Of a stretch of 64,000 nucleotides of DNA, positions 10,401 through 62,571 are shown piece after piece. The stretch spans positions 17,164,213 to 17,228,212 of the forward strand of contig OZ234493.1 of assembly GCA_965153455.1 (NCBI GenBank), read 5' to 3'. Both the position numbers and the translations under genes were made by a program. The stretch comes from Sphagnum compactum (Eukaryota). Position 1 is the stretch's first letter. The number at the start of each line of letters is the position of its first letter. The notes below the pieces were generated by a model. That model saw only the letters and a program-made list of their open reading frames with translations, did no database searches and had not been told where the DNA came from.

Positions 10401-13400
10401 AGTTTTGCAACAACATGACAAAATGGAGGCAATGTCATTGAATGCAATAAGAAGGGATGAAGTCATGAAAGACTTGTTTGTAACATTACATGATGTCTTA
10501 TGTAGGCAATTTGAACATAAAGGCATTGAAAATATGCAAACTAAATTAGAGAATTCAAAATTGGGAACTCCCCCATTAAGATTTAAACCAAATATATCAA
10601 TCATGAAAAAAGATGTTGCCAATTTGGAAAAGGTTTCATTCTTGGCTACAAATGATAAATGTAGTGACAAAATGTGCATTGCTATTATTGGATTTTGTCA
10701 ACAACTAATTGCCTTCTTGGATCAAGGAATATACTTCAAAATTGGGTTTATGTGTTTAAAAGAAAAGGATTAAATGATGTTGCCAATTTGAATCCAGACA
10801 TTATAACCAAAGTTGAAAGTTTAATGAATGAAATTTTTATCAAGCCCAAAACCATGATGAGGACATCTGATTATAATGGTTCTAATGTAGAAGATGATAA
10901 AACCAAATTATTTCAAAAACATGAAAATCTGGTCCTTAGGATCACTCATTTACAAGATCACCATGAGGTATGCTTAAAGTTGACAATTTTTATCATAGAT
11001 GTTTCTAACCTTATAATTAGTTTATTACAAGATTGCAATCCCTTATTTTTGACATGCAATAAGATTACATTGACCTCATTTAATTGAATGTATTTTTAAA
11101 TCTTGTAATATTATTATTATATGATTCACAAAACATATAGATTTACAAAAAAACAAAAAGATGGAAAGACTTTAAACACTTACGTTCACACTAATATGTG
11201 CACCATATATGTTCCATTTTAAATTTTGAATTACAATTGAAGTTCATTTGCAATTAGATTTTAGCAATGTGAAGAAAAGGAATTACAATTTATTTAGTTT
11301 ATTTGAAAATGGAATGAATGTTATACTTTAACAATTGGTCTTGGATCATTAGGTTATAACATAATGTGAAAAAGATATAATTACATCATTATTACAAGGC
11401 CAAGAAAAGGTAATAGAGTTATCTATGCAACAAGCCCACATGGATGCAATAGTTGAATCATCAATCTTACAAAAAAAGTTGAATATGACCTCACAAAGGT
11501 TAATAGAAAAACAAATGATTTTAGATCAAAAGATGAAAATTTTGGAAGAAAATGAAGGGCAAGCTGCAATAAGAGAAAAGGATGTACAATCAAGGATTTC
11601 AACTTTGATAAAAATGCAAAAGGAACTTGACACTAAGAAAGAAGAATTTGAAAATGAAAAAATGCAAGAAACGTTTATGTCTATTAAGAAAGAAATGGAT
11701 TGTAATTTCACAACAAACGAGACAACACTATTGGAACATGAAAAGGAATTACAACGTAGAACTTGTGCAATGGAAAAGATGACACAAAAACTCAACCAAA
11801 GGCAAGACGATCTTAAGCTTTTACAAGTGGACTTGGAAAGTGATACGATGAAGTTACAAAAAACCATGGCTGATTTTGAACAAGAAAAATTGCAATTAAA
11901 AGAAGTTGAAGGGACTATATTTCAAGCACATGAATTAAATAAAAACGTTGAAAATGTTTGGGCAAAAGTTGGAGAATTCATTCAGTCTGTGAAACAAACC
12001 ATGAAGCCTAAGGAAGACCAATTATGTATAAAAGAGCAAGACCTCTTAAAAAAAGAAAGTGAATTAAAAGAGCTTGATTTATAAACGAAGAGTGAATGAG
12101 AAAAATTAAAAGTTAGTTCATAATTACATATTAATTATTCTAATTATTGATTACACTTATCATTTTGAATCTTAATGACAATAATGTAATAAAACTTCCA
12201 AATGTTGAAAAAACTAACAAAAGGTGGAAGACGAACAAATCTAATGATTCATTTTGACATCCTTCACCTATTCCCTCACTTGGCCACATCTATGGTACTT
12301 AATCGTTGTGGTTCAATGTTATTGATTTTTATAGACATTGATCTTTCATTGTAGGTGATGCAAACAAAGCTTGTGAATGAACAACAAGCATGGAATGAAG
12401 AAATAAAATCCAAACAAGAAAATATCACAATTCAAAGTGAAACACTAGAATTTAAAGAAGCAAATATGAAAAAGGACATAGGGATTTTGGTAGAGGAAAA
12501 AGGTGTACAATAGAAGAGATGAAACATCTTTTGGAGATGAAAGTTAAAACAAAAGTTGTAGAGAAGGAATTGCATGCCAAACATGAAAAACACATTCAAG
12601 ATGTAAGTGCATATTACTTGTGACCCATTCCAAAGTTGGGGTTAATTATCATATATATATATGATATGTATCATTTGATTTAAAAACCACTTGTTGTTGG
12701 AATTAGGTTTCTACGCATGCAATGAATTACAATGCTCAAATGGAAGAACTCCGAGCAACAAAATAAAAGGTTGAAAAAGAACAAAAAGATGTTTGTAGTA
12801 CAAAACGAGATCTTTTAATTTGGCAATAAGAAGCTGAGGAGACCTTGAAAAATGAATCGATAGTTTTATCATTGGAAAGGAGGAACTTGCAACACAAATA
12901 CAAGAACTAGTTACATCTACATCACCACTTTTCAGTTTGAAGAAGAAGGAAATTTAACTTTTAGGTTGATTTCTTATCCATTACTACATGATGATATGGA
13001 TAATTTCAAATGGTAATTTTTGGAAAATCATGAAATCATTTTCCTTTGAATATTCACCTTAATATTGATGAAACTTGACAATGATAGAGAAAACTTCAAA
13101 CATATATAGAACAAGCTAGAGCACAAATTATTGAAAAAATGGTTAACCGAGATCAAGCTACCACAAAACTTAATTGCTATCAACATAAGCTTGAAAAATC
13201 AAATAAGAAGTTGGAATTTTGGGCTGACAAATTGACTACACAACAAAATCTTTTCAGCACAAAAGAATGTGACTTAAGAAACCAAATATACACCTATGAC
13301 ACAAGTTCTTAAAGGATGAATGTCACCAATTTTGTCATCATTTCAATCTATTTGGATAATTTTAACATTTTATGTGTGAATTTTTTTGAATGCAAGGAGG

Positions 13401-17640: not shown

Positions 17641-17994
17641 TCTATTGAATGTGATCAATTGGGAAAGGCAGCAAGGGGATATGCAATTCAAAAGCATTCA
17701 TACTAAAATGATGATGGATCAATTTTATTATAGCTCAAGACTTGTTTCAAATGTTGAGGTCAATATCTCAAGTGCTAAGATGCATGGAAATCCAGAAAGG
17801 ACTAATGTGTTTTGGGGAAAATCATGATCCATGCGGGCTCACAACCTTAGAAAATCTCATCATAAAACATGGGTCATGAAGTGAGCAAGAGATTAGTAAC
17901 TTCAAAATAAATGGAGGATTGGAAGTTGTAAATTTTGATGTTATACATAGTGTTCAATGCACAACTTTTGGAATATTTGTTTCAGTTGTTGGTT

Positions 17995-18526
17995 TTGTTG
18001 AAATAGTTCCAGTGCCTTCTGGCCTTGCCCCCATTTCACATGTTCCAATATCATGGCTGTCCAAGTGACCAATCTGGAGATGACATCTTGTTGAACACTC
18101 TCCAAGCATCCTCCATGCTCCTACATTTTTCATGTTCATGTCAACAAGGCTACACCCCACAAAGACATTAGACTCACAACCACTTTGAATGATCTGTTCA
18201 TGAACATTCCTGCCATCTTCAGGTGCTACTAAACCAGCACGTGCCTTTATCACTTCAACAAAAGTGAATTCGTTGGGACTCATTCTTTCTTGTTGCATTT
18301 GTTGGAAAAGCTGGATCACCTTCTTAGGTTGCCCATCCTTAACATATTTTGTAAGCTCTTTATTCAATGCAAAAATGTTCAATTGCATTGTGCCTGGTGC
18401 CAAAACAACCCTATCTGCTGCCACACATGGTGGGTTTCTTTGGTCCTCAAGCCAGAGTCCTTCCTGCATCTTGAAATGTGTGATCCAGGTACCTTTCATT
18501 TGCCTACAATCAGCAATCCAGATCAA
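17995..18526 (-). pseudogene. PLS-class pentatricopeptide repeat (PPR) pseudogene, N-terminal part
   Basis: MQLNIFALNKELTKYVKDGQPKKVIQLFQQMQQERMSPNEFTFVEVIKARAG...VHEQIIQSGCESNVFVGCSLVDM, then a frameshift into WTAMILEHVKWGQGQKALELFQQ; truncated. Confidence 0.9.
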
Positions 18527-37358: not shown

Positions 37359-38506
37359 ATGTCTTCCTCCTCCGTTGTCTCCACTAGTGACTCATCCTCC
37401 TCAAATGAAGGCACATTAGTTCATACGCAAGCAGAGGTGTCTCATTCTCCTCATGGTCCACCTCGGCAGCTTTGCCAATGCACCAATTGTGGTGGTCAGA
37501 TTTCACAAAAGTCATATGTTTGTGCTCAACACATTCAGCGATTTGGGCGTCATCGTGGTCTTACCCCAGGAACTTCTTCATCTCATGTGGTAAGTGTCAT
37601 TTTACCATTGTCATTTTTCCTCTTTGATACATGTTATTTTTCATGAAATCCTCTTTGAAACTATTTTCACTTCCATGGTTTGTTGTGGTTTTTTGAATGT
37701 AATAGGGTTCCTGTATGACACCAGCACCCTATGTTCTATCACAAGGGGTTTTAGCTGCCATAGGAAATGCGCTTTCGCATGCATTTGCTGTAGGGATTAG
37801 TGCCTCTCATGAGGCCAGTAATCCACATCATGAGGCAAGGCCATGTCTGCCCTCCGTTAGACAGCGATCCAAAGCACAACGTCCAAGTGAGGGTCATGCT
37901 AGGACTATTGTTGAGGGCACATGGGGTATGTGTGAATTCACTGGCAAATGTGCCAATATTATCCAGTCATGGAACCCTGCAGTTCTTGGGTTGCTTGATA
38001 GTTTGCCCTATGATGAGGAGGTTGTGGTTTGGGGTAGACGATGGATTGTTAAGACCTCTACACTTGGAGAGAGGCATGGCTATGGAGTATATGCTTGTGA
38101 GGACATCATTGTAGAGGATTCAACTAGTTGTCGTAGAGAGGGTCCTACTTTGTTCCCTTATGGTGGGCCTATCTATAAGAGAAGACATTGGAACATGATC
38201 CTCAGACAACATCCTGAGTGGAAGACCTTTGCTCTTGAGATGGACACCTTTGCTGGTAGCACTAGGAGGCATAGTGATGTGAGGGTGATAGATGGAGACC
38301 CCATACGTTCTGGAAACATTGTTGGTTTCATCAACAGTACGGTGGGGACTCGGCCTAAGCGTAAGGCTAATTGTGAGTGGGTTTTTGTTGAGGGACCTCC
38401 TCCAGCACCATATGGCGAGACTTATCATGAAGACCATTGCCTGGTGTTAGCTACTAAGACGATCAGATTAGGAGATGAGTTGTTTACACACTATGAGTGG
38501 AATTAG
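37359..38506 (+). CDS. Transposon-borne SET/PR-domain protein (putative lysine methyltransferase) with N-terminal CxCxxC..H motif; 2 exons, about 343 aa
   Basis: Exon 1 37359-37589 (donor GTAAGT) and exon 2 37706-38506 (acceptor aatag) join in frame with no stops. SET motifs: VKTS..HGYGVYACEDI, PYGG, IDG..SGNIVGFINS..ANC, LVLATKTIRLGDELFTHY. Confidence 0.8.
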
Positions 38507-38652: not shown

Positions 38653-40990
38653 AATATTCGGCCTTCTGAAGACATGCTGCCACGGAGGTTGAGAACAACA
38701 TATTGGGAAATGGGCATGCCAGGCAAATCAGACTCTTCATCAACTCATTCTTCATCAAATGACTTGTCTCCTCATGATGAAGGTGTCTCTCAACCAGTTC
38801 AGGAAGCACCACTGCCTGCAAACCAAGAACAAGCAATGGATGACTTCATGGTTGACTGGTTTGGACTTGACATAGTTGATGATATGTCTAGCAACCCACA
38901 TGATGAAGGAGCCAATGCAGATGATCCACGTCATCAACATACTGCCCAGGCACAACGGCAGTGGCAAGAGGCGAAGGCACATGCTCAAACACCTATTTTT
39001 CAAGGTGCAAGGTTAAGCCGTTTAGCAGCCATACTGGGGTTGTTAAACATCCAAGCAAAACACAAGGCAAGCAATACTATGTTGTCAGACATTTTCCAAT
39101 TTTGTCATAGCCTCTTGCTACCTGAGGAAAATGTTTTGCCAGGATCTTGGAAGGAGGCTAAAAAGATCTTATCCTCCATAGGCATGGAGTATCAAATTGT
39201 CCATGCATTGTTAATGACTGCATGTTATTTCATGGGAACAATGCCCATTTAACGGAGTGCAATACATGTGAAGAGGCTCCATATGATCCTCAGATGCTTA
39301 CAGAGAAGGTGCCCAGGAAATCAGTAAGGTGGTTTCCCATTATTCCTCGCTTGCTGCACATGTATCGATGTACAGACTTGGCCGAGTTAATGGTTTGGCA
39401 TAAGGAACATCGATCAGAGCCTGGTGTTATGAGGTTACTGGTTGACTCTCCTGCTCACAAGCATGTGGAGTCAACATGGCCAGAGTTTGAGCGTGACCCT
39501 AGGCATGTGAGGTTGGGGTTAGCATCAGATGGTGTTAGTCCACATTCACTTGGAGGAAAGGGACGACCTACTTCTGTTTGGCCAGTTGTTGTCATGAATT
39601 ACAACCTTCCTCCGTGGTTGTCTATGAAAAAAGGATTTTTGCTGCTTTCTCTTATTATCCCAGGGCCAAGTAAGGTGAAAAACCTAGACACCTACTTAGC
39701 ACTAATGGTTGATGAGCTCAAAACATTGTGGGATGGAGTATGGGCATATGATGGGAGGAAGACCACTGGAGGAATACCACGTGTATTCAAGTTGAGGGCA
39801 ATCTGCATGTGGACAATGCATGATTATCCTGGTAAGAAATCATGCACATGCCTCTATATATTTCTTTATTATTCTGTTTTGTGATTATTTGTTGTTCTAA
39901 TATTCCGTTCTTCTACAATCAGGGTTTGGTTTTGTAAATGGGCTGCAAATTCAAGGCTACAAGGCCTGCTCTACATGTGGCCCAAGTTTCGAGGACATGG
40001 CTAAATACTCAAGCCATCTTCGCAAAGTTGTTTACCTTGGCCATACAAAGTTTCTTCCACTGGGACATGATATGAGATCAGATCCACTTTTATTTTCATC
40101 TTTTGACATGCCTTATGGTGATGAGCGTGATATTCCAGAAGCTACCACTTTTGCATATTGGAAGGATGTGGCCAATAGAGTTATTGACCCAAATGATTCT
40201 ATGGTGTTTGAGGGTAGTGGATTGACAAGGTGGGGTATACTCAACAGCTTGCCTTACTGGGGTGAGCTGAAAATACGTCATCTCTTGGACCCCATGCACA
40301 TTGAGGGAAATGTGGGAAAGGCTATCATAAAACAGCTCTATGGAGAGAAGGACAGTAACTTTAGGGAGGCCTGTGAGGATTTTGAGAGGCATCCCGATGT
40401 GTGGATTACTGTTGATCCTAACACAGGTATTGAGCAGTGACCATCAGCTCCATGGACACTTACTACACATGAAAGAAGAGACTTTCGAAATCGCATAGGA
40501 GAGATGCGATTCCTTACATGTTTGAACTTTGATGGCAAGGGTTGAATTTAGAAGTACTCTATTGCTTTTATTTATATTTAAATCTGTATGCCTTATACTG
40601 GAAAAAGAGTTTGAAGTATAGAATGTTATCTGTTGGATGTCTAGAATACTTTTGTATAATTTTATGGTACCTTGTTGCAGGTTATGGAGCTAATCTTCAA
40701 AAAGCTTTTGGTAGGGACGATGACCACAAGTGGCCAAGGTATCTCAAGACACATGACTATCATCGTTTACTGCAACACATATTGCCTGTGGCAATAATGG
40801 GCTTAGCTAGTGCAGAAGTACAAGATGCTCTTTGGTCATTGGGAAATCTGTTGAGATGGGTATGCTCAAAGGAGTTATTTGTAGAGGAGATTCCAAGAAT
40901 GAGGGTAATAGCAGCAGAGGTGGTATGCAAGTTGGAAAAGGCCTTCCCTCCACCATTATTTGATTGTCAAGTGCATTTACTAGTTCACCT
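38653..40990 (+). pseudogene. CACTA (En/Spm, Tnp2/TnpD family) transposase, disrupted and truncated
   Basis: Motifs HA(C)VNDCMLF (1-nt frameshift near 39208), WFPIIPRL, RHVRLGLASDG, WPVVVMNYNLPP, IIPGP, DELKTLWDG, MHDYPG, GYKACSTC, LDPMHIEGNV, LKTHDYH..LQHILP, FPPPLFDCQVHLLVHL. Introns 39832-39922 and about 40520-40680; TGA at 40438. Confidence 0.95.
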
Positions 40991-41579
40991 ATACATATGA
41001 TCTGGCCACTACACCCGTAAGGACGCAGGCTGGAGGCTGTTTGACCAGAAAAAAGGGGGTGTAGTGGCAAGCTTTTTTTACGTAGTGGCAGGCTGTTTTT
41101 GTTGACCTTTTTCACTTTTTGTTACTTTTTTTATTGCTTGTAACTTTTATAAGTTACTTTTTACTGTTGAAAGGGGTAACGTTTGTTACTTTTTGTTACT
41201 TTTTTACTGCTTGTAACTTTCATAAATTACTTTTTACTGAGCCAGGAGGGCCAGGGTTTATATTCTCTTCATTATGGGACGGGGGGAAAGGGTGCACCTT
41301 GATTTTTTTCCTTCATTTTTTTGACTGTTTAGGGGGAGGGAGGGGGTTGGAGGTTGATGTTTTTTTTTTTCCCTTCATTGAAAATATGGAAGGAGGAGGG
41401 GGGAAAGGGGTTAATTTAGGGGCTCTGGAAATGTTTTTTTCATTGTGGAGAGGCTAGGGAGGGGAAGGGGGTAATTTTTTTTACAAATTCATTATGGGAC
41501 AGGGGAAAGGGTGCACCGGGGGAAAGATTGACATGTGGAAGGAGGAAGGGAAAAGGGTTAATCTCTTTCTTAAATTTTC

Positions 41580-44148: not shown

Positions 44149-44174
44149 GGGTTTAGGGTTTAGGGTTTAAGGGG
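44149..44174 (+). repeat. Short interstitial plant telomere-like tract
   Basis: GGGTTTAGGGTTTAGGGTTTAAGGGG. Confidence 0.75.
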
Positions 44175-52352: not shown

Positions 52353-54726
52353 GCCAATGAATCTGCCATCAAATTTCCACATTCAAAATATTGCACAGTA
52401 ACCAAAGTCCAGATCATAGCACCAGAAAGTATTGGAGACTTTTTGAGAGGAGATGCCACCAATTGGTTTACGGACATAATAGAATGGGCTATTTGAACCA
52501 AAACTCTTGGAAACAAATTAGTATCACAATGGTCCAGTCAGCAAGGTAAAAAGAACTCACAGAACTAGCGGCCATGATCATCGAGCTGGCTTCTTGTCAT
52601 TGTACATAAATCCATGGTATGGTAACACTCAGCGATACCATGAGTCTTAGCAGTCTCATCCATTGGCAAACTGCCATTCCGCTCTTGTTTTTTGAGAGCC
52701 GAAAGGAATCCAAAAATCCTCCCAGCCTTGAATAAGTGGCTCTCATGACATACAAGAAGAGCGCTGTTGCTCTCAAGATCTAATAGCTTTGCACTCCTCT
52801 TCAAATATTGACAAGTGAAAAACAACATGGTGGGAGCTGCCATACAAACGGCGGTGTTGCTGTCACGCATGGGTTTTCCATTCATTCACACAAGGTCCGA
52901 AAATCCCTGACAAACTTGTGCAGTTACAAACATCATACATTGTTGCACATTGTTGAGCTCTTCTCTTATTCCCAATCAAGCAATAGAGAGTCAATTTGTA
53001 GACTCTGTCGCCTAGCATTAGATACACATACAGTACCACCCTAGAAGTCAGACTGTACACATTATTTGGGAAAAACATGAAGGGTGGAGAGAAAACAACA
53101 CATGATACTCTGTTCATCTGGTTTTTGCCCATTAAGTGATTGGACATGCTGATATGATTAGTACACATCAGTCGACGTTTCAAACAAAGAACTACTCTCA
53201 TATGATCGAAATTTCACAAATTTCACAAATCTTCAGACCCTAGGCCCAACCCCCAGGTTCAGACAATGGTACACAGAAAGAAATGGAGGCCAACATCCAG
53301 AATTTGGCATCATCAAGAGCAATACCTGAAATTCCTGAGTCTGGAAGCACCATAAGAAAAAACAGCCAACGACAAATGACGTGCTGAAAATCTGCCATAG
53401 AACTTCAACAACACCGTAACCTCTTCGACAAGAAAAATCTTATGCTTCGTACCCTCATAAATTAGACGCATAGAGTTTGAATCCAGTTGATGCAAAGGCG
53501 ATCTGCAAAAGACAACCCTTCAAACGGTTCAAGGTCCTGGAGCAACAACAGGGAGGACTCCGTTTTGGAATGTGATTTCAGGAACTTTCAAAACTAAAAC
53601 TTCAAGTGATATTGGAAAGCAGTTTGCTGAACTGATCCACCAGATTCCAATTGTTCAACAAACAATCAATGCACAACCAACAAGAAAACATGAGGGTAGG
53701 AATCCATGTAGCACAATACCACCAACTGTGGTTTTGGAGGATGCCCTAGAAAATAAAGTTGCTTGCAAGCCGGTCGCATGCCAAGGAGATGGTTATCGGT
53801 TGCGAAATGTAGACTCCACAGTAGTCAGAGTCGAACCCCAATAGGAAACCCTCAAACCGCCAGGAGTTGGGAGCCATCGACGCTGGAGCACAGCGTTCAT
53901 TTCTCATGGGAAACGGGAAAACCGTCGAAATGAACGATATACCTGCTGTGTGACTTTTCCCAGGACGTCCCCCATTCCAAGAAACGACACAACACGAATA
54001 GAGACATGACTGATCTTCAATACTCTCCACACCGCATTGGACACCATAGTTCGATGAAGCTCCTTCATGCTCGACCACTTGTTCTATTATTACCCCAGGG
54101 GGGAACATTGGTCGAATACAGCAAGACACACGGTCTTCAGATTTCAACAAAACCCGAACCTATGCAAATCGTACACGGAGCTTTACAATATGCGACGACA
54201 ATCTTCACACCTCCGAAACAATCCCCACAACGTGTGTAAGGCAATGCACCGCGAAAGAGGAATTGACAGAGAGTGGATGGAGCAAAGAAAGATGTCAGCT
54301 CAAAAAACTGAATCCAAACAATCGACAACCTGCAGTAGACTTGGAAGTATACCCACAAAAGGGGTACTAGCGGATGCAAGCCCTAGAACCAGGACCAGTA
54401 AGGAGCGGGAGGAGCTGCCTCGGAATACAGCAGAGCAGGAGATGAAAACGACGCTAGGAAGGGGTAAAATACCAAGGAAACAAGCACAGTATAGCTTTGA
54501 GCGACACGTACAAGTCTATGCCGAGGAGGATGAAGTCGACAGTGACCCTCACCGTAGTGCGACTCCATCAAGCTCCCAGTGACTCTGATTTCAGCCTTCC
54601 TTGCACACCGCCTTCCATTCGTTGCTGTTGCAGCCCTAAAAAACTTGCACGAAGACGTCGACCACAACGAAAGGAGGCATAAGTAATACAACACAGCCGA
54701 CAGTCCTTGGACATATGGGTTAAATC

Positions 54727-57700
54727 CTAGAATTGTATTTTTCTGTGAATGTTTTGTTCCAGCATTCGAATGCACGCGTCTACCAATCGTGTGAAGTTGG
54801 TGATAGATCGTCCCAAGGCCTTCTGTCCCATCCATCGAGCCAATTCTTCATCACGAGTGATGTCTTTCAATTCCGGCATGGCCGTGCGCATGTCCGACGG
54901 GTTGCGACGCCAAATGGCCCAAAGAAGAATGCGGTATCGTTCACCCCGAATTTGACCCGGGCAATTAGCATCGTACCTTCCTTCGTGCAACTAGACATTG
55001 CCTAGCGCCTGCCCGTTGTGCAAAAGGTGGCACTTGGGACAACTGTCAGGTGACCGAGGAATGGAATTAGGGCAATCCGACCTAGGATGCGGTCCTAGAC
55101 ATTTGAAGCATCGACAACCATCCAGCAATAACGGACAATTTTGACTGGGGTGACACAAGTTTCCAGCATCGCCGTAAACACTGCACATGAGACAATTGGG
55201 TTCATCAGGAGCAGCAAATCGACGAAAATTCTTCAAGGATGTATAATCCTCGTTCATGAAGGAGGTGAGCACCGTCGCTCGCACCCTAAGCATCGGCAAT
55301 GGTGGGGGGGATTCTAGTGACACCACCCTCGATTGTCGTACACAATTGTCGCACAGTTGTGCTGCTGGAATTAGGTTGCACCGTTGTGATTGACCATCCA
55401 CAGCCAAATGAAGATTGTGTCGTCGACAATTCTCCGTGTCCGTGATCCAAGCGTTGGGTTCGACGAACGATGAATCGATGTGCAAAGCTTCAGCTCTAGA
55501 TTTTGCACTAGAAATCACTCTGTTAATACCAGGTTTACCGTCGCGAGCAAGTCGGCCCGACTCTTGGTGCAGAGCAGCAAAAGACCTAAAAGATCCACGG
55601 TGAATGACGAGCCTCACCGACGGGTAGTTGTACCCACACCCAATGACCCCGGTGGCCACCATAACCCGAGCTTCACCCGAGAGCCATGATTGTAACTGCG
55701 CCTTCTTAGCGTCTTCATCCAGATGGGCATGAAGATGGGCGGTCCTGACCAGTGCCACGTTATTGGCGATCGATGCCACGTGTTCGACAGACTCTCGTGT
55801 CAAGCAATATACGATTGCCCTATCCGTCTCGGAAGCCACATCGCAATCCCATCCGACAACTTGTCGAATGATTTCATCGTCAACATCAGCCACTTCATCG
55901 ACGACATATCCAATCAACGGGCGCACCGTGGACATCCGGATGACGGTGAGTGACGTGGACATCACGATCTTAAGGTCAGTCTCTTGAGAGGGGGACAAAG
56001 AGGCTGTCAATGCGACGAGTTGGCACCCCACGGCCCACAACGGCAATAGGCGCTTCATGACCGGTCTGAAATCGGACAGAAGCAAATGCGCTTCATCCAC
56101 AACAACACAATGAAGCTTTTGTAGATGGTTCAATGTGTGTGCGAATTCCACAAACCTAGGAGTTGTTGCATGTTCCACTGATACGAACAAGATGGACGGG
56201 GGATCATGAAACGTAATTGTGTCCGTGCCATAGGTTGCGTGTCGTAGGCCAGCTCGACTCGCATCAGCTTCGTGTCCCCTGACAAGGATGCTGAGAGGTA
56301 CCACCACGATGACGGTGCGACCAGTGACCATGGGTGGGATCATGAACGCGGCTGATTTGCCATGGCCAGTGGGCATGACCACCAATAAGTCAAGTCTATT
56401 TTCCAACACTAATGTCACAGCCAGGCCTTGTTCCTTGCATGTCCATTGTTCATGGCCAAATCGACGAAGAGCTCGTAAAGCACGCACTTCGTGCGTTTGA
56501 TCTCGAGGGGGAGGCAGGATGGTCGGTTGAGCGGGAGTCTATGCGACTGCGATGGAAGACATGAGCGATGCGAGGAGAGACGCGCAATCAGATTGCAACG
56601 GACAATGTGTGTTGGGTTTATCAATAATCGTCGGAATCTCAACGGTCGAAGCACCTGAGGGAGGTGGATCGAGGGGGCTCCCATCGAGTTGCAACAAGCG
56701 GTGCCATGCTTCGGCGGCCAATTTGTATGTGTACATTTGTTGGCTGTCCATGAACCTGTGATCGTTCGAACAGCTGGCATAATGTTTGGCGACCATAGCG
56801 GAAGAGTGCCCCGATGTCTCGTCGATGGGAAACTCCGTGCAATAACTCTGTTTGATGGCGCCACCGAAGTAAGCGGCGAGATGACAATAATCTGCAATCC
56901 CAATATCAAGATTTGCATGCTCGAGGAACCCAGCGGCCACCAAACGCGAAACATGTGCGCCCTCCATGGCCGCATCTCCTTGAATGGCCCAAACGTTCAT
57001 ATATTGTTGGGCAGCGTCAATATTTCCACGCAGACTGGCGATGAACGACTGCACCGGCCTCACAAGCAACATATATTCGACGAATAACAAATTCAGTTTT
57101 GGGGGTAGGAAACGAGGTATCAATTTGACAGGCTGCCCTACATTGGCGCTCTTGTGGTATCTCTGAAAAGTCATAATGGTGCCAAAGGACCAATAGAATG
57201 TCCTATCAGAATGCTCCGTGTTGCGAATGAGATAACTTTTATACTCCTCCCCTCGAGGAGGACCGCCGGCAGTGAGATGCAAGAGTAAAAATAACAACGC
57301 ATGCATTCGGTCGGCTGCTCGTGCCCACATTGCCAAGGCATTTTCATTCCATATCAGGGATCGATTATCGTTTGTGCCTGTGATGAAAAGGCTTCGAGTA
57401 AGCCGATCGGTAAAAAGGTGGATGGCCAGATCCTGTCCATGATGATGAAATTCATTACGGGCATCCGACAAGAAAGAATATCCAACTTTGTCTTCATTCA
57501 CCTTGTCGACGATGTTGCCTTCCGCTATCACCCGACCGATCCAGGTCGTCTGGAGTCCCAGTAGTAATTGGTTGCTCATGACCTTATTCGCCTCGCCCAA
57601 CAGCTTACCAACCAGGTTCCGCAATGTGTCGATTGTCACAGCTTGACCATCGATCGTGCATGCCAAAGGACCGATTCGAACTAGTCTGGGGACGTCCGGG

Positions 57701-59499
57701 CCGTCACCCAACACCGTGCAAGCAAGGCGCATGGTCTCCCGCAATTTGTTGAACGGTGTGTCCTTGGCGTTATCACGAATGCAAGCGAGCCACTCATCAG
57801 CCTCACACCAAGGGATGGTGGGGTGATCAGGCTGCCACATTGGACGCACGAGCTACATGAGGACCGTGCATCTCCACCAATACTCAAGAATGGCTATGGG
57901 ACTCGTCACATGTCGAACATGTTCGAAGGCAATGCTGGTTGATGAAGGGTTCGACTTTAAGCTGTTCACAATCAGGAACCTCATTATTGGACAACCGGTT
58001 TGTAGCCCATGCGGAACGACCGGACACATCGGCGGTCGACAAATGTGCAGCAACACCGTGTGGATGTGAATGAGATCTTCGTTGGCCATGTCTGCATCTT
58101 GCCGACCTCGGATGTAAGAAATGAGACTGTCGAGCGCATCTGCGAGATCCGAATGCAATTCGCCAAGAACATTGACGAATGGCTTATCATCCGTCGGGCT
58201 GCTATCTCTGGATCGGACCATCGCAATGAGGAGCTGTGTCATCAGCGCACAATATTTGCTCACTGTGGATGGCACCCAAAGCTAGTTGAGCCCCACCGTG
58301 GCCACGGGGGAATCTTCGACAGAAACTACCAGCCGCCTGAGATGATATGGCACACGACCAATCATGGTCTGTGCGTTCTCCAAATATGCTCGGACCATCG
58401 AGGGCAGGCGGTCCAAATTGAATTCCCCATTCATCGAGGTCGGGAGCACGCTTGCTTGCTTGATATGGTCCAAGGGCGTACCAGCTGGAATGATGTGGTT
58501 GACGGCTAGCTCGTGCCAACGAGACACCCTGAGCCATGGACTCAACTCACGAATGGATGGATTCGGTGCCACGTTCAACACCGAACATTCATGGGCCTCT
58601 AACGAAGCCCGCACTTGCTCCTTAAGTCGGAGCCCCGTCGGGTCACCCGCAAGCTCCATATTTTGGTGGTCGACACCAAAATAGGCGGTGTGCCCGACCT
58701 TTTTAAAAAGCCGCTGCACTTGGCACGGTTGACAACTGGCATTAGCCGGTAAGAAAAAATGGTTGGCCAGGCGATGATTGGCGATGGTCCTCTTGGAAGC
58801 GGAATAGTAGGCACATCCATCTGCCTTGCATCGATATCCATTGATGACCGTGATACCTAGGACCACAGGTAAAAGCTCCTGCAGTGGAGATGTGGTATAC
58901 CTTTCAAGGCGAGGGTCTTGCAATTGGGTGAATTCAATCTCATCAAACAACGGTGCAAAGTCTGTGAGAGGTGGGATCGTAGTCACACGATGCCCGCCAG
59001 CGTTGCGACGCCGTTTGGGAGCTCTATGATTATCGTGCCCCAATAGGTGGTTATGCACTTGGCAAGGCTTCGGCTCCAAACATACACCACAAACCTTGCA
59101 CAACAGTAGACGAATGCCATCCACGATGTTGAGAACAACAAGGCCAGCATCACGGAGCAGCTCCGGTGTTTGTTCGACGGGTGGCTGAATTAACATGCCC
59201 ATCGACATCGCCTTTTGCACATTGTCATCATGGAGTTCATTGAGGGCCGAATTGTTTCGCTCCACATGTTGCACTTTGAAATGGCACTGGAGCTTATCGC
59301 TGCGTTCAAATGCCCTTGTGCAGCGATCAACGGGGCAAGGAAATTTGCCTTCAATGGATCGGTGGACAGTAATTCGACCAGTGACAGTGCGAACCTTACA
59401 AGTGGATCGATGCACCAATCGGCGATGTCCATCACGTTGGTTAGAAGCGGGAAAAAAAATGTTACACTCGGGGCATTCGAAGTTAGCCATGAATACCAT
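54727..59499 (-). pseudogene. Telomere-linked-helicase-like polyprotein: C2H2 fingers, DUF3505-like Zn domain, tyrosine-recombinase-like domain, RecQ helicase and Zn knuckles (about 1590 aa, four in-frame TAG)
   Basis: ORFs 58282-59529, 57853-58275, 56539-57849, 54991-56487 and 54727-54990 are all in one frame, separated only by single TAGs at 58282, 57853, 56539 and 54991. Helicase motifs MPTGHGKS, VVDEAH, LTAS, IVYC, VMVATG..G.G, QESGRLARDG, plus the RecQ Zn motif CRR..C..CDNC. N-terminal CPEC..H..H and CPVDRC..H...H fingers. Confidence 0.9.
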
Positions 59500-61280
59500 A
59501 TGACAATATATAAGTGTTTGTGAACACAACAGCGCTGCAACTGATAATAGAAGGTCAATTTATCAATGACTCGGGCTTTGTCAAACCGACCTCCACCTTG
59601 TAGACAAACGAAATCGAATTTTTGGTGTGAGTGATTTTCCCCGACACAACATCGATCTACGCAAAATCACAATGTTCAAATTCATGCATACAACAAATAT
59701 GTTCGGTAGATGCCCTTACTTGGTCACACTGCTAGAATAGGTTCGCACATATATGGAGTTGAATCTGCGATGTGGTCTAACCATCGTGCTCCCTCCGCCT
59801 CGTAGCCCCTGCGAAACATCCCAGTGCTGGAGTTGAAAGACGACAACAACACAGATTCCATCCATGCGACAAATTCCCGGTGCACACAATTCAAATGTTT
59901 GGAGCTATGTAAACCAATATATCATGAAACTAATGTTTGCACAGTATGTTAATTTGGTGTTGCGTAGACAAACATTCGTTTCGCCAACACTAATAACGCC
60001 TTCGAACCATCAAAAACACCGCAAAGATACCAAGGGCAGTCATACAAATTTTGTTGCGATCTCATAAATGTATCTATGAGAACAAGTTGAAATTTGCAAC
60101 ATGTTGCATGATTCACAAAAGAATTTTCTATTCCTAATGATCTTTCACTGCAATTCAAAGCCACGATGACAACGACAACAAATGAAATTTTGGGAGGGAA
60201 AGAAATGCAGATGTTGGTATAGGTTGAGGTTTTGATACCTGCACTCGCTCATTGTGCTCAAACAAGCTGGCATGCGTGTGGAGTTGAACTTAGGAAGTTT
60301 AGGCTACAATGCCCCCTGCCAACATAACATACGCAAAAAATGACAATTCAAAACTTCACTATTTGAATGATAGGCCAACCTTGCGTAAGAGATTTCAAGA
60401 TGCATCTCTGAATTTTACATGGAGCTATATGTTAGGTTGCTCACCTCAAGAACAAGAGTTTGGTGATGTACACCGCTATACTGCACAAACACAATAACTG
60501 TTGGTTTTTTAAATCACAAGATTTTGCCCAGACAAATGCCTCTTGCACACACAAGAAAACTGGAAAAAAAAATCTCCAACCCCCTATGTGTATCTTGTGT
60601 CCTACTCAAATTTCACTATGTTTGAGGGAATTGATAAATGACGTGGTGAAATGTACTTTGGCCTTCGTGGCACACTGCGCAACCTTTTATGGCCATCCAT
60701 GCATATACGCTATTTATCTTGATAAATGGAATCTAATTTTTGTAGAAGGGTAAATTACTTTGTGTTGGATTTGACACGATTATGTATTCATTGCAATATG
60801 GGTGCCAACTCTTCGAATACAGGTGGGAAAATGTTGAACGGTGTTTCAGGTGTTTAATGCGGCCTGTACAAAAATCTTGCGTACCATATATGTAGCATAT
60901 TTTATAATTTTTACATGTCGCATACATGACCCATATAACATTTCCCCGTGGTGCTATCGCATGTGATTTTTCTACATCATGGCATATCACACATTATAAT
61001 GAAAACGAGCCTATTTTTTATGGCAAGCAGTCTCCAAATTTCGGCTTGAATTCGGGTTTTGAAGGCGAGCTCATTGGGTGCCTCGTTAAGTGGCCCCCTT
61101 CTCCTTATTTTTCACTATAAATAGTATAAATAGTTATGCTGGCATTATATTTGGCTTTTGACTATCTGTCAAAATGTCACCATTGAAGCAACTTTGTAGA
61201 ATCTTCTTTAGGGTTTGAACCCTTGAACTGAAGGGCTTATAAGGGCCACTGGGCAAGGTTGGAGAAGCAGATGGAAATTT

Positions 61281-61345
61281 AGGCAGGGGGGGATGTGACA
61301 GCCCCCTGAACATTGTTTATAACGGCCCTCTAAATTGTTGTAATA
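61281..61345 (+). mobile_element. Possible polypurine tract plus LTR start remnant
   Basis: AGGCAGGGGGGGA|TGTGACAGCCCC; no partner LTR found. Confidence 0.3.
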
Positions 61346-61426
61346 AGAGGATCCATCAAATATGCAATCACATAACATTTACGGACATGTTTGATTCATG
61401 GCCAAATTATGTTTTGTATAGTCGGT

Positions 61427-62097
61427 GGGAAATAGATCCAATTCTCGTTCTCATCATTGAATAAACATCAATTCATGCTTCGTCCCAACAAATCTTCATT
61501 GTAATTCATGTTTATGAATTGAAAGGATATGTAATATAGTAAACTTTGTGCAAGTGTGAAACACTAGCACAATTTACCAAAAATGTCCCACAACATTAGT
61601 TGATTACAATTAACAAGAACTCACCACGATAACACACTCCAAAGCATGCATGCCATACCCCATTGCCATAAGGTTCCTTTCAGCAAAACGAGGCTAGCTG
61701 CTATCTGGTCAGGATAATAAATAATTTTTTATTAACCTAAAATAAAATTTTAAAACTAGTATATTTGGAGGGAAATAGATCTGATCCTTATTATCATTGT
61801 TCAATAAACATTTAATTCGTCCTCCATCCCAACAAAGTTCTGTTATAATGAATGCTTATAGATTAAAAAGGATGTGTGATATATCAAACTTTGTGCAAGC
61901 GTTTAGGCTCTAATATTATTTACCAAAAATGTCTTAGGGCATTTACAAATTAAAATTAGCCGTGATTGGCCACGATGACGTACTTTAGATATGCCCTGCG
62001 GCGTTGCCATAATGTTCCTTTTCCCAAAACAACCCTAATTATTATTTGGTTATATATGCCCAGCGGCGTTGCCATAATGTTCCTTTTTCCCAAAACA
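61427..62097. repeat. Diverged direct repeat (~343-bp period) plus a short ~45-bp duplication
   Basis: GGGAAATAGATC...AATAAACAT...CCCAACAAA...AAACTTTGTGCAAG...TTTACCAAAAATGTC at 61427 and 61770; ATATGCCC(T/A)GCGGCGTTGCCATAATGTTCC near 61991 and 62054. Confidence 0.7.
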
Positions 62098-62571
62098 ATG
62101 ACGGCTACCCATTTTGTTGGACCCTCCTATGGAAAAAGATAAAGCAATTTCTTCAAGGAAATGAATATGACATCAATCGAAATAAATATCAATTTCCCCC
62201 CGCTCTGTTACCGATAATTTAATATTAGTTTTCATTCTGGGTTTAGGGTTGTTTGTATTCCAAACCAATACGTCTCACATCAAATCTTCGTTCATGGCAC
62301 CAATTTGCATTTTACTGGTTCAATTTCATCCACCACACAATTCGGCCAAGGTTTATCCGAACGACACATGTTCGCCATCCAGGACAAACAAAACACGACG
62401 GGCACAGCATGCGTCGCATGGTGGCCCTACCATTTATGACGATAAGAAACAAAACACTAACTTAAATGGGATATTGTTTTATTTTTCTTACAAATGACAG
62501 TAAAAGTAGACTAGATCGCATATACAAGATTTCTTCTCATGTGAAATTAGGTCACATTGCAGGATCCTATA

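Follow-up and report, generated by a model that had tools for sequence, protein, structure and literature searches.

A multi-copy moss element, decayed in the copy examined, that probably joins a divergent tyrosine recombinase to a RecQ-like helicase

The window analysed here is a stretch of 64,000 nucleotides of Sphagnum compactum DNA (contig OZ234493.1, positions 17,164,213 to 17,228,212 of the forward strand; all positions below are those of the window). Its minus strand carries a broken gene of a repeat family, in which a tyrosine recombinase (YR)-like module precedes a RecQ-like helicase. The original prediction, made from the sequence of this DNA, had read the module as a divergent YR, probably inactivated by an Arg-to-Cys change. 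The open reading frame (ORF) that holds the module is one of five on the minus strand (59529-58282, 58275-57853, 57849-56539, 56487-54991 and 54990-54727) that share a single frame, a point absent from that prediction. The pieces are split by single TAG codons, four of which lie inside the gene (at 58282, 57853, 56539 and 54991), and no frameshift occurs over 4.8 kb. Because of this common frame, the TAG-only breaks, the lack of frameshifts and the CAG codons found in other copies, we conclude that the five ORFs are one gene of about 1,600 codons, intronless and read from 59529 to 54727. It encodes, in order, C2H2/OrsD zinc fingers, an unlabelled module, a RecQ-like helicase and a Cys/His-rich tail, and its G+C content is about 50%, against 37-43% around it. 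A reading of TAG as a sense codon was rejected, because relatives carry CAG at those sites and the gene itself ends in TAG; this terminal codon is present in 5 of the 7 metagenome loci, described below, that cover it. The features of the gene and of its repeat unit are, from the 5′ side:

59530..62098 (−), 5′ non-coding part of the repeat unit, of which most copies share 59530 to 60264-60280
58282..59529 (−), piece 1, with C2H2-type and OrsD (PF12013, formerly DUF3505) zinc fingers; OrsD E 7.6e-9 (Pfam); stop TAG at 58282-58284
57853..58275 (−), piece 2, 140 aa, without a recognised domain; stop TAG at 57853-57855
56539..57849 (−), piece 3, 436 aa, the tyrosine-recombinase-like module, in which a helical N-terminal part precedes the catalytic domain; stop TAG at 56539-56541
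56650..57357 (−), catalytic domain of this module, residues 165-400 of the 436-aa ORF
57244..57255 (−), box I, with R199 (57253-57255) and E202 (57244-57246) in GGPPRGEE
57151..57153 (−), K233, candidate general-acid Lys of the β-hairpin
56881..56886 (−), codon 322, TGT (Cys), where the family has Arg II; H323 comes next
56779..56808 (−), box II, with H348 (56806-56808) and the candidate nucleophile Y357 (56779-56781)
54991..56487 (−), piece 4, RecQ-like helicase of superfamily 2; DEAD 1.5e-17 and Helicase_C 7.8e-14 (Pfam); stop TAG at 54991-54993
54727..54990 (−), C-terminal tail, in frame with the other pieces and closed by the terminal TAG at 54727-54729; no Pfam family
54608..54726 (−), 3′ non-coding end; beyond 54649-54608, copies in other contexts are no longer similar

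The helicase piece retains the motifs PTGHGKS, DEAH and QESGRLARDG. When the family profile was run against PDB sequences, it matched RecQ5, RecQ, BLM, RECQ1 and WRN (best E 6.4e-27) through the helicase columns of its long rows. The module ORF (56539-57849) had no Pfam family at E ≤ 1, and Pfam revealed neither a reverse transcriptase nor any other coding domain in or beside the repeat unit. A tblastn search of the 64-kb window with the read-through protein returned only the match to itself.

The prediction of a YR rested on four strings within the module: LHLTAGGPPRGEE, with R199 at 57253-57255; FQRYHKS, with K233 at 57151-57153; IADYCHLA, with C322 encoded by TGT at 56884-56886; and SGHSSAMVAKHYA, with H348 at 56806-56808 and Y357 at 56779-56781. 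All of them proved exact to the base, and so did the GH-x8-Y spacing (eight residues between H348 and Y357) and the placing of the second Arg position, here C322, 26 residues before H348. Homologues were then sought by an exhaustive HMMER scan with the 436-aa ORF over cluster representatives, which gave 1,744 representatives at E ≤ 1e-3, 441 of them at E ≤ 1e-10; an early word-indexed search had found only 2 distant long relatives. The window was aligned with the 58 homologues, out of 152, that span residues 185-362. In these 59 rows R199, E202, K233 and Y357 are each invariant (59/59), H348 is kept in 58/59 and position 322 is Arg in 57/59, the other two being the Cys of the window and one Gln. 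H323 occurs in 50/59, with Gln in the remaining 9. The invariance of R, K, R, H and Y that the original prediction called for was thus found almost to the letter, and it extends to the Glu of box I. A second alignment of 39 matches, chosen by length, had identical invariant columns. Judging from this conservation, the signature is more than a chance resemblance.

The relatives are spread over many fungi and a liverwort. The named ones come from the liverwort Calypogeia fissa, from Ceratobasidium, Rhizoctonia and Mycena, from the lichen fungus Xanthomendoza and from the mucoromycete Zychaea; one Calypogeia fissa relative sits on a 46.8-Mb contig, and two family members had been named automatically 'ATP-dependent DNA helicase tlh1'. 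The order OrsD, module, DEAD/Helicase_C is common to the long homologues, with OrsD at the same N-terminal place in 4 of the 6 that were scanned. A search with the family alignment among longer proteins (1,723-4,920 aa) added one unrelated RecQ protein only. We also built a tree by a quick method from 85 rows, namely the window and 84 proteins matching residues 190-360, a rule that excluded two liverwort proteins. The window fell inside a 19-row clade of unlabelled sequences, and for this reason we draw no conclusion on a donor or on horizontal transfer.

The kinship of the module was assessed by profile-profile alignment. The 59-row family alignment was compared by hhalign with a set of 15 YRs from bacteria and phages, made up of lambda Int, P1 Cre and 13 PF00589 matches of E. 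coli K-12. The result was a probability of 81.8%, E 1.1e-5 and a score of 48.4 over 158 columns, against scores of 12.5 for the reversed template and 7.8-14.3 for 20 column shuffles. The alignment carried residues 167-363 onto lambda Int 180-348. It placed R199 on lambda R212, Cre R173 and XerC R148; E202 on Cre E176 and XerC E151; C322 on lambda R311, Cre R292 and XerC R243; H323 on XerC H244; H348 on lambda H333, Cre W315 and XerC H266; and Y357 on lambda Y342, Cre Y324 and XerC Y275. A variable position before 322 fell on lambda H308, Cre H289 and XerC H240. We take these lambda Int, Cre and XerC residues to be the catalytic ones of their enzymes.

AlphaFold2 modelled the whole ORF with a mean predicted local distance difference test (pLDDT) of 83.6 and a predicted template modelling score (pTM) of 0.81, and residues 165-400 with values of 89.7 and 0.86. 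The predicted elements succeed one another as a helix, Arg I, a sheet of three strands (K233 following the second), further helices, the helix of the R-H pair, the His and a flexible Tyr segment; K233 lies between the predicted strands 224-230 and 243-247. In a Foldseek search of the PDB with the catalytic part, the first 18 listed rows (ranks 1-20) were all YRs, among them XerA, XerH, the integron integrase IntI, Cre/Tre and Tn1549 Int, with a best probability of 0.96. The whole-ORF model had XerA or XerH in its first four rows, and against BFVD the best named matches were phage integrases (E 0.034-0.43). The nearest Pfam-labelled ESM clusters, which serve as leads only, were Phage_integrase, NDC10_II and Integrase_2, at 0.83-0.84. 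Since residue conservation, profile-profile alignment and predicted fold agree, the module very probably belongs to the YR/topoisomerase-IB superfamily; granted that membership, it is quite likely a recombinase rather than a protein with a topoisomerase-like or binding role. The divergent YR of the original prediction is supported by the same three lines.

We next consider the state of the gene in this and other copies. Copies were compared at 54 related loci from metagenome contigs, each codon being counted over the loci that cover it, and also over the contigs of four runs labelled moss metagenome or metatranscriptome (X5, X9 and X11 from DNA, X15 from RNA) at ≥85% identity. Codon 322 is CGT in 39 of 47 loci, CGC in 1, CAT in 4 and TGT in 3, which makes it Arg in 40/47; protein fragments at ≥55% identity have R 9, C 2 and H 2 at this residue. 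From CGT, a single CpG transition leads to a Cys or to a His codon. Position 56886 is A in the window and G in all aligned contigs of X5, X9 and X15, while in X11 it is G in 223.1 of 258.9 depth units. The supposition that other copies would carry CGT at 56884-56886 was therefore right for most loci and for nearly all contigs of the four runs. The codon of Arg I (R199) encodes Arg in 33 of 42 loci and is TGC or TGT in 6 and CAT in 3; that of K233 is AAG in 40/42. At the four internal TAG sites, CAG is the commonest codon of other copies (15/28, 25/39, 21/43 and 6/17). The stop at 57853-57855, which accounts for the 25/39, is Q in close relatives, and at 54991-54993 all aligned contigs of the four runs have G at 54993, that is, CAG.

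The window copy has thus lost Arg II (CGT to TGT) and carries four CAG-to-TAG nonsense codons; it is dead several times over. The predicted inactivation by Arg-to-Cys held in that Cys replaces the Arg of the family, but this change is not alone the cause of death, because the four nonsense codons also break the gene. The ratio of nonsynonymous to synonymous substitution rates (dN/dS) of the YR ORF, computed between the window and individual loci, was 0.14-0.25 in 13 of 15 pairs and 0.25 and 0.44 in the remaining two; five locus-locus pairs gave 0.22-0.45. Values of about 0.2 between subfamilies indicate that the module was under purifying selection while the family diversified. In the metatranscriptome run X15, 147 contigs, 9 of them at ≥99% identity, spread over 54700-59565 and covered all 30 bins; these contigs are not evidence of expression, because DNA carry-over is possible.

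Contigs matching the gene at ≥85% identity numbered 819, 670, 246 and 147 in the four runs, and the flanks differ among the 54 loci. The family is multi-copy, indeed high-copy, and decayed in its host. The ends of the unit are bracketed, by 54608-54649 on one side and by 60280 to about 62100 on the other. Past about 60280, colinearity on the 5′ side differs by locus: it reaches 60707 in L068, 61005 in L042, 61279 in L033 and about 62030-62098 in L045 and L032. The AT-rich region upstream of the gene contains direct repeats spaced by about 343-345 bp and a 65-bp pair at 61416-62094. Terminal inverted repeats (TIRs) were not evident, the sole inverted pair being one of 37 nt at 70%. One subfamily (L033, L032, L068, L040, L042 and L035) has a tandem duplication of the 750-bp segment 60264-59515, which comprises the 5′ leader and the first codons. 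Two candidate boundaries were rejected: the recurrent junction 59515|60264 is not a circle junction and reflects this duplication, and the sharp 5′ edge at L035:1185 is a truncation of that copy alone. Separately, L032 is 91-97% identical to the window over 62098-61759, against 73-75% over the rest of the element. Several 5′ cut-offs also recur with unrelated sequence upstream, at 58031 in L026, L027 and L031, at 57863-57873 in L025, L028, L030 and L052, and at 58123 in L017 and L018; they could stem from the duplication of a few truncated insertions, or be the trace of the way in which the element copied itself.

On this basis, we propose that the minus strand from 54608 to about 60280, possibly to about 62100, is probably a dead copy of a multi-copy mobile element that encoded a YR together with a RecQ helicase. 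Mobility is suggested by the copy number and by the differing flanks. In intact members, the zinc fingers would locate DNA, and the YR would break and rejoin DNA strands by forming a 3′-phosphotyrosine at the residue equivalent to Y357, where R199, K233, R322 and H348 would activate the phosphate. Such an activity could excise and integrate the element in a Crypton-like manner, by way of a Holliday junction or else of a circular form. The 3′→5′ helicase, being part of the same protein, might unwind or branch-migrate the recombination intermediate, or it might make the process replicative.

Several results weigh against this proposal. The first His of the HxxR motif, three residues before position 322, is variable in the 59 rows (S 13, A 12, N 9, R 9, others), as the original prediction had stated, and K233 stands opposite a gap in the hhalign alignment. 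Residues 353-362, which include Y357, have pLDDT below 50. In the structural comparison, where the models are confident and the top Foldseek rows all YRs, the original prediction was borne out in part, but no PDB match reached E ≤ 0.001 and the template modelling scores of 0.44-0.45 stay below 0.5. At the sequence level, phmmer of the ORF against PDB sequences gave no match at E ≤ 10; the family profile found no YR among PDB sequences, only RecQ-type helicases; and YR families such as Phage_integrase (PF00589) are absent from the 25 of 34 matched Pfam families listed for 40 members. As for the element, a search among the copies for termini, target sites, empty sites and circular junctions found none of them. 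Many loci share their 3′ flanks to the contig end and so group into sets, and where flanks are common the loci may not be independent insertions but orthologues or homeologues. None of the 54 metagenome loci is intact, the longest open frame being 843 aa.

An unlikely alternative, though one that retains some weight, is that the gene belongs to a multi-copy cellular family of the telomere-linked helicase (TLH) type, present here as a dispersed pseudogene and not as a transposon. The YR-like domain would then serve recombination or end-processing at chromosome ends, and the family would have spread by subtelomeric recombination and segmental duplication. The order of domains speaks for it. A preprint on Fusarium oxysporum TLH proteins describes a pair of C2H2 motifs near the N terminus, a conserved 'TLH domain' of about 250 residues that directly precedes the helicase, and RecQ motifs, and it states the function of TLH proteins to be undetermined (10.1101/2024.02.27.582403); the present gene follows the same order. 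The automatic naming of two family members as tlh1 agrees with this, as does a second preprint, in which F. oxysporum proteins that combine DEAD, Helicase_C and DUF3505 are reported at about 4.5 kb from subtelomeres (10.1101/2023.02.05.527183). The TLH genes of Magnaporthe oryzae are described as multi-copy, often mutated and preceded by tandem-repeat blocks (PMC1635262), as is the window copy by its upstream repeats; and flanks are common to several loci. However, the window copy lies away from a chromosome end and is not beside telomere repeats, the sole telomere-like match in the 64 kb being a 21-nt interstitial one at 44152-44172, about 10 kb away. Hundreds of contigs at 85-99% identity, together with universal decay, resemble a transposon burst. 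Moreover, the two readings are not exclusive, in that TLH genes could themselves be YR elements.

It is rather improbable that the module has the YR/topoisomerase-IB fold without being a recombinase, whether as a type-IB-like topoisomerase, as a nicking-closing enzyme resembling a telomere resolvase or as a non-catalytic DNA-binding domain. Helicase-topoisomerase pairings are common in biology, and the conserved R-K-R-H-Y set without the first His is the pentad of type-IB topoisomerases. Bacterial topoisomerase IB and the protelomerase TelK did appear among the Foldseek rows, at ranks 23, 26 and 32 with probabilities of 0.09-0.12, and NDC10_II, a YR fold regarded as non-catalytic, was among the nearest labelled ESM clusters (0.83). 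All of the 18 best Foldseek rows and the hhalign match, however, are recombinases or integrases, and the RH dipeptide and the Glu of box I agree with XerC/XerD and Cre. The full catalytic set is retained across the family, and a purely binding role is therefore disfavoured.

That the motifs agree by chance and the domain is of another kind, such as the DDE transposase of KolobokH or AcademH, is very improbable and already largely refuted: the lack of a Pfam or PDB sequence match to YRs would fit it, and KolobokH, a fungal DDD/E transposase with a downstream RecQ helicase, does exist (PMC9587614), but six residues with the spacing of YRs are kept in all or nearly all of the 59 sequences, the hhalign score was 48 against 8-14 in the controls, the best matches of the helical fold are YRs and integrases in two libraries, and no DDE-type Pfam match occurs in any piece or in the 6 long homologues.

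The window copy is an ordinary dead repeat, and its value lies in the light that it sheds on a large unlabelled family. At least 1,744 cluster representatives carry labels no more specific than 'hypothetical' or 'RecQ helicase', and Pfam is without a model for their middle domain. Recognition of a YR there turns these proteins into candidate self-mobilising enzymes, would add to the few known eukaryotic YR elements a type that is coupled to a helicase and would extend such elements to land plants. A strand-exchange enzyme and a 3′→5′ helicase in one polypeptide would make a candidate compact recombination machine. If the module is also the TLH domain, it offers a testable mechanism for TLH function and for the presence of these genes at many chromosome ends, a question raised by the TLH papers themselves; a YR could move or recombine the genes there.

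Elsewhere in the window, remnants of a CACTA/En-Spm-type transposase occupy 38674-41000 (+) and 37715-38506 (+) in several ORFs (Transposase_21 E 4.7e-39, DUF4218 9.9e-7), and just upstream of them lies an ORF with a weak SET domain, below the Pfam cut-off. An ORF at 17954-18526 (−) has a PPR_2 repeat (E 1.3e-7) that looks like the plant PLS type. These ORFs agree with a land-plant host, most likely a moss, as does the presence of about half of the sequence words in the DNA runs labelled moss metagenome. At 11425-12084 (+), a 219-aa ORF with a high content of Glu, Lys, Gln and Leu looks coiled-coil-like, and its only Pfam match is a sub-threshold one to RNase_Y_N. The telomere-like match at 44152-44172 (+) is of the plant type and consists of three TTTAGGG units with one mismatch; none was expected in shuffles.

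Among known systems, the bacterial and phage YRs (XerC/D, XerA, XerH, Cre, lambda Int, IntI) share with the module the G-x-R-x-x-E of box I, the R-H pair and G-H-x8-Y at equal spacing, as well as the predicted fold family, and their catalytic residues align with it one to one except for the Lys. They differ in that identity is about 10-14%, below Pfam detection, that the first His of HxxR is replaced and that the module sits within a multidomain helicase protein of 1,600 aa. KolobokH and AcademH resemble the element in that a eukaryotic transposon protein is linked to a helicase, of RecQ or another type. KolobokH has been reported from fungi only (PMC9587614), and AcademH is described as a helicase-bearing transposon with a DDE transposase; the DNA-breaking domain is a DDD/E transposase in these elements and YR-like in the window.

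The known eukaryotic YR elements are Cryptons, Starships and DIRS-type elements. Starship captains (DUF3435), DIRS, Ngaro and PAT are likewise eukaryotic mobile elements driven by a YR. Unlike DIRS, Ngaro and PAT, the present element shows no reverse transcriptase or RNase H in the window pieces, their neighbourhood or the 6 long homologues, and unlike Starships its unit of about 6-7.5 kb is not a cargo carrier; neither inverted terminal repeats nor a split-repeat structure could be established for it, and DUF3435 was not among the 25 of 34 matched Pfam families listed for the 40 members. Cryptons resemble the window element in being, like it, a eukaryotic, multi-copy repeat of a few kb with one long YR-encoding ORF, no reverse transcriptase and no evident TIRs. 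The window element differs from them by its fused RecQ helicase and its OrsD/C2H2 fingers, and the same listed families included no Crypton-type one (DUF3504, GCR1_C). A term search of Kojima & Jurka 2011 (PMC3212892) and of the 2026 Glomhopper CryptonA paper (PMC13465315) did not return the word 'helicase'. A RepeatMasker label 'Crypton-H', for which we found no definition, occurs in the tables or text of 4 papers; if H stands for helicase, the type may already be catalogued in Repbase/Dfam. A eukaryotic YR element with a RecQ helicase was not found described in the literature searched. We consider it likely that the element is one, in a combination for which we found no description in print.

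By comparison of architecture, the closest match appears to be the TLH family, known from S. pombe (tlh1/2), M. oryzae (TLH1), U. maydis, M. anisopliae, F. oxysporum and Monosiga. C2H2 fingers, a domain of about 250 residues and a RecQ helicase follow in the same order in both, as far as a comparison by description goes, and the catalytic domain of the module, with 236 aa and about 100 aa before the helicase, is close to the TLH domain in size and position. In both families the copies are numerous, many of them are mutated, and tandem repeats lie upstream; the window copy differs in being interstitial, in a plant-like genome and part of a high-copy dispersed family. The terms 'telomere-linked helicase' and 'tyrosine recombinase' were not found together in the literature searched. 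From the architecture and the automatic annotation we infer, tentatively and at slightly less than an even chance, that the TLH domain is this YR catalytic domain. TLH genes and their relatives labelled 'hypothetical' or 'RecQ' would then form one superfamily of mobile elements with a YR and a RecQ helicase over Mucoromycota, Ascomycota, Basidiomycota and bryophytes, which would have settled at chromosome ends in fungi and, in mosses, spread through the genome and then died.

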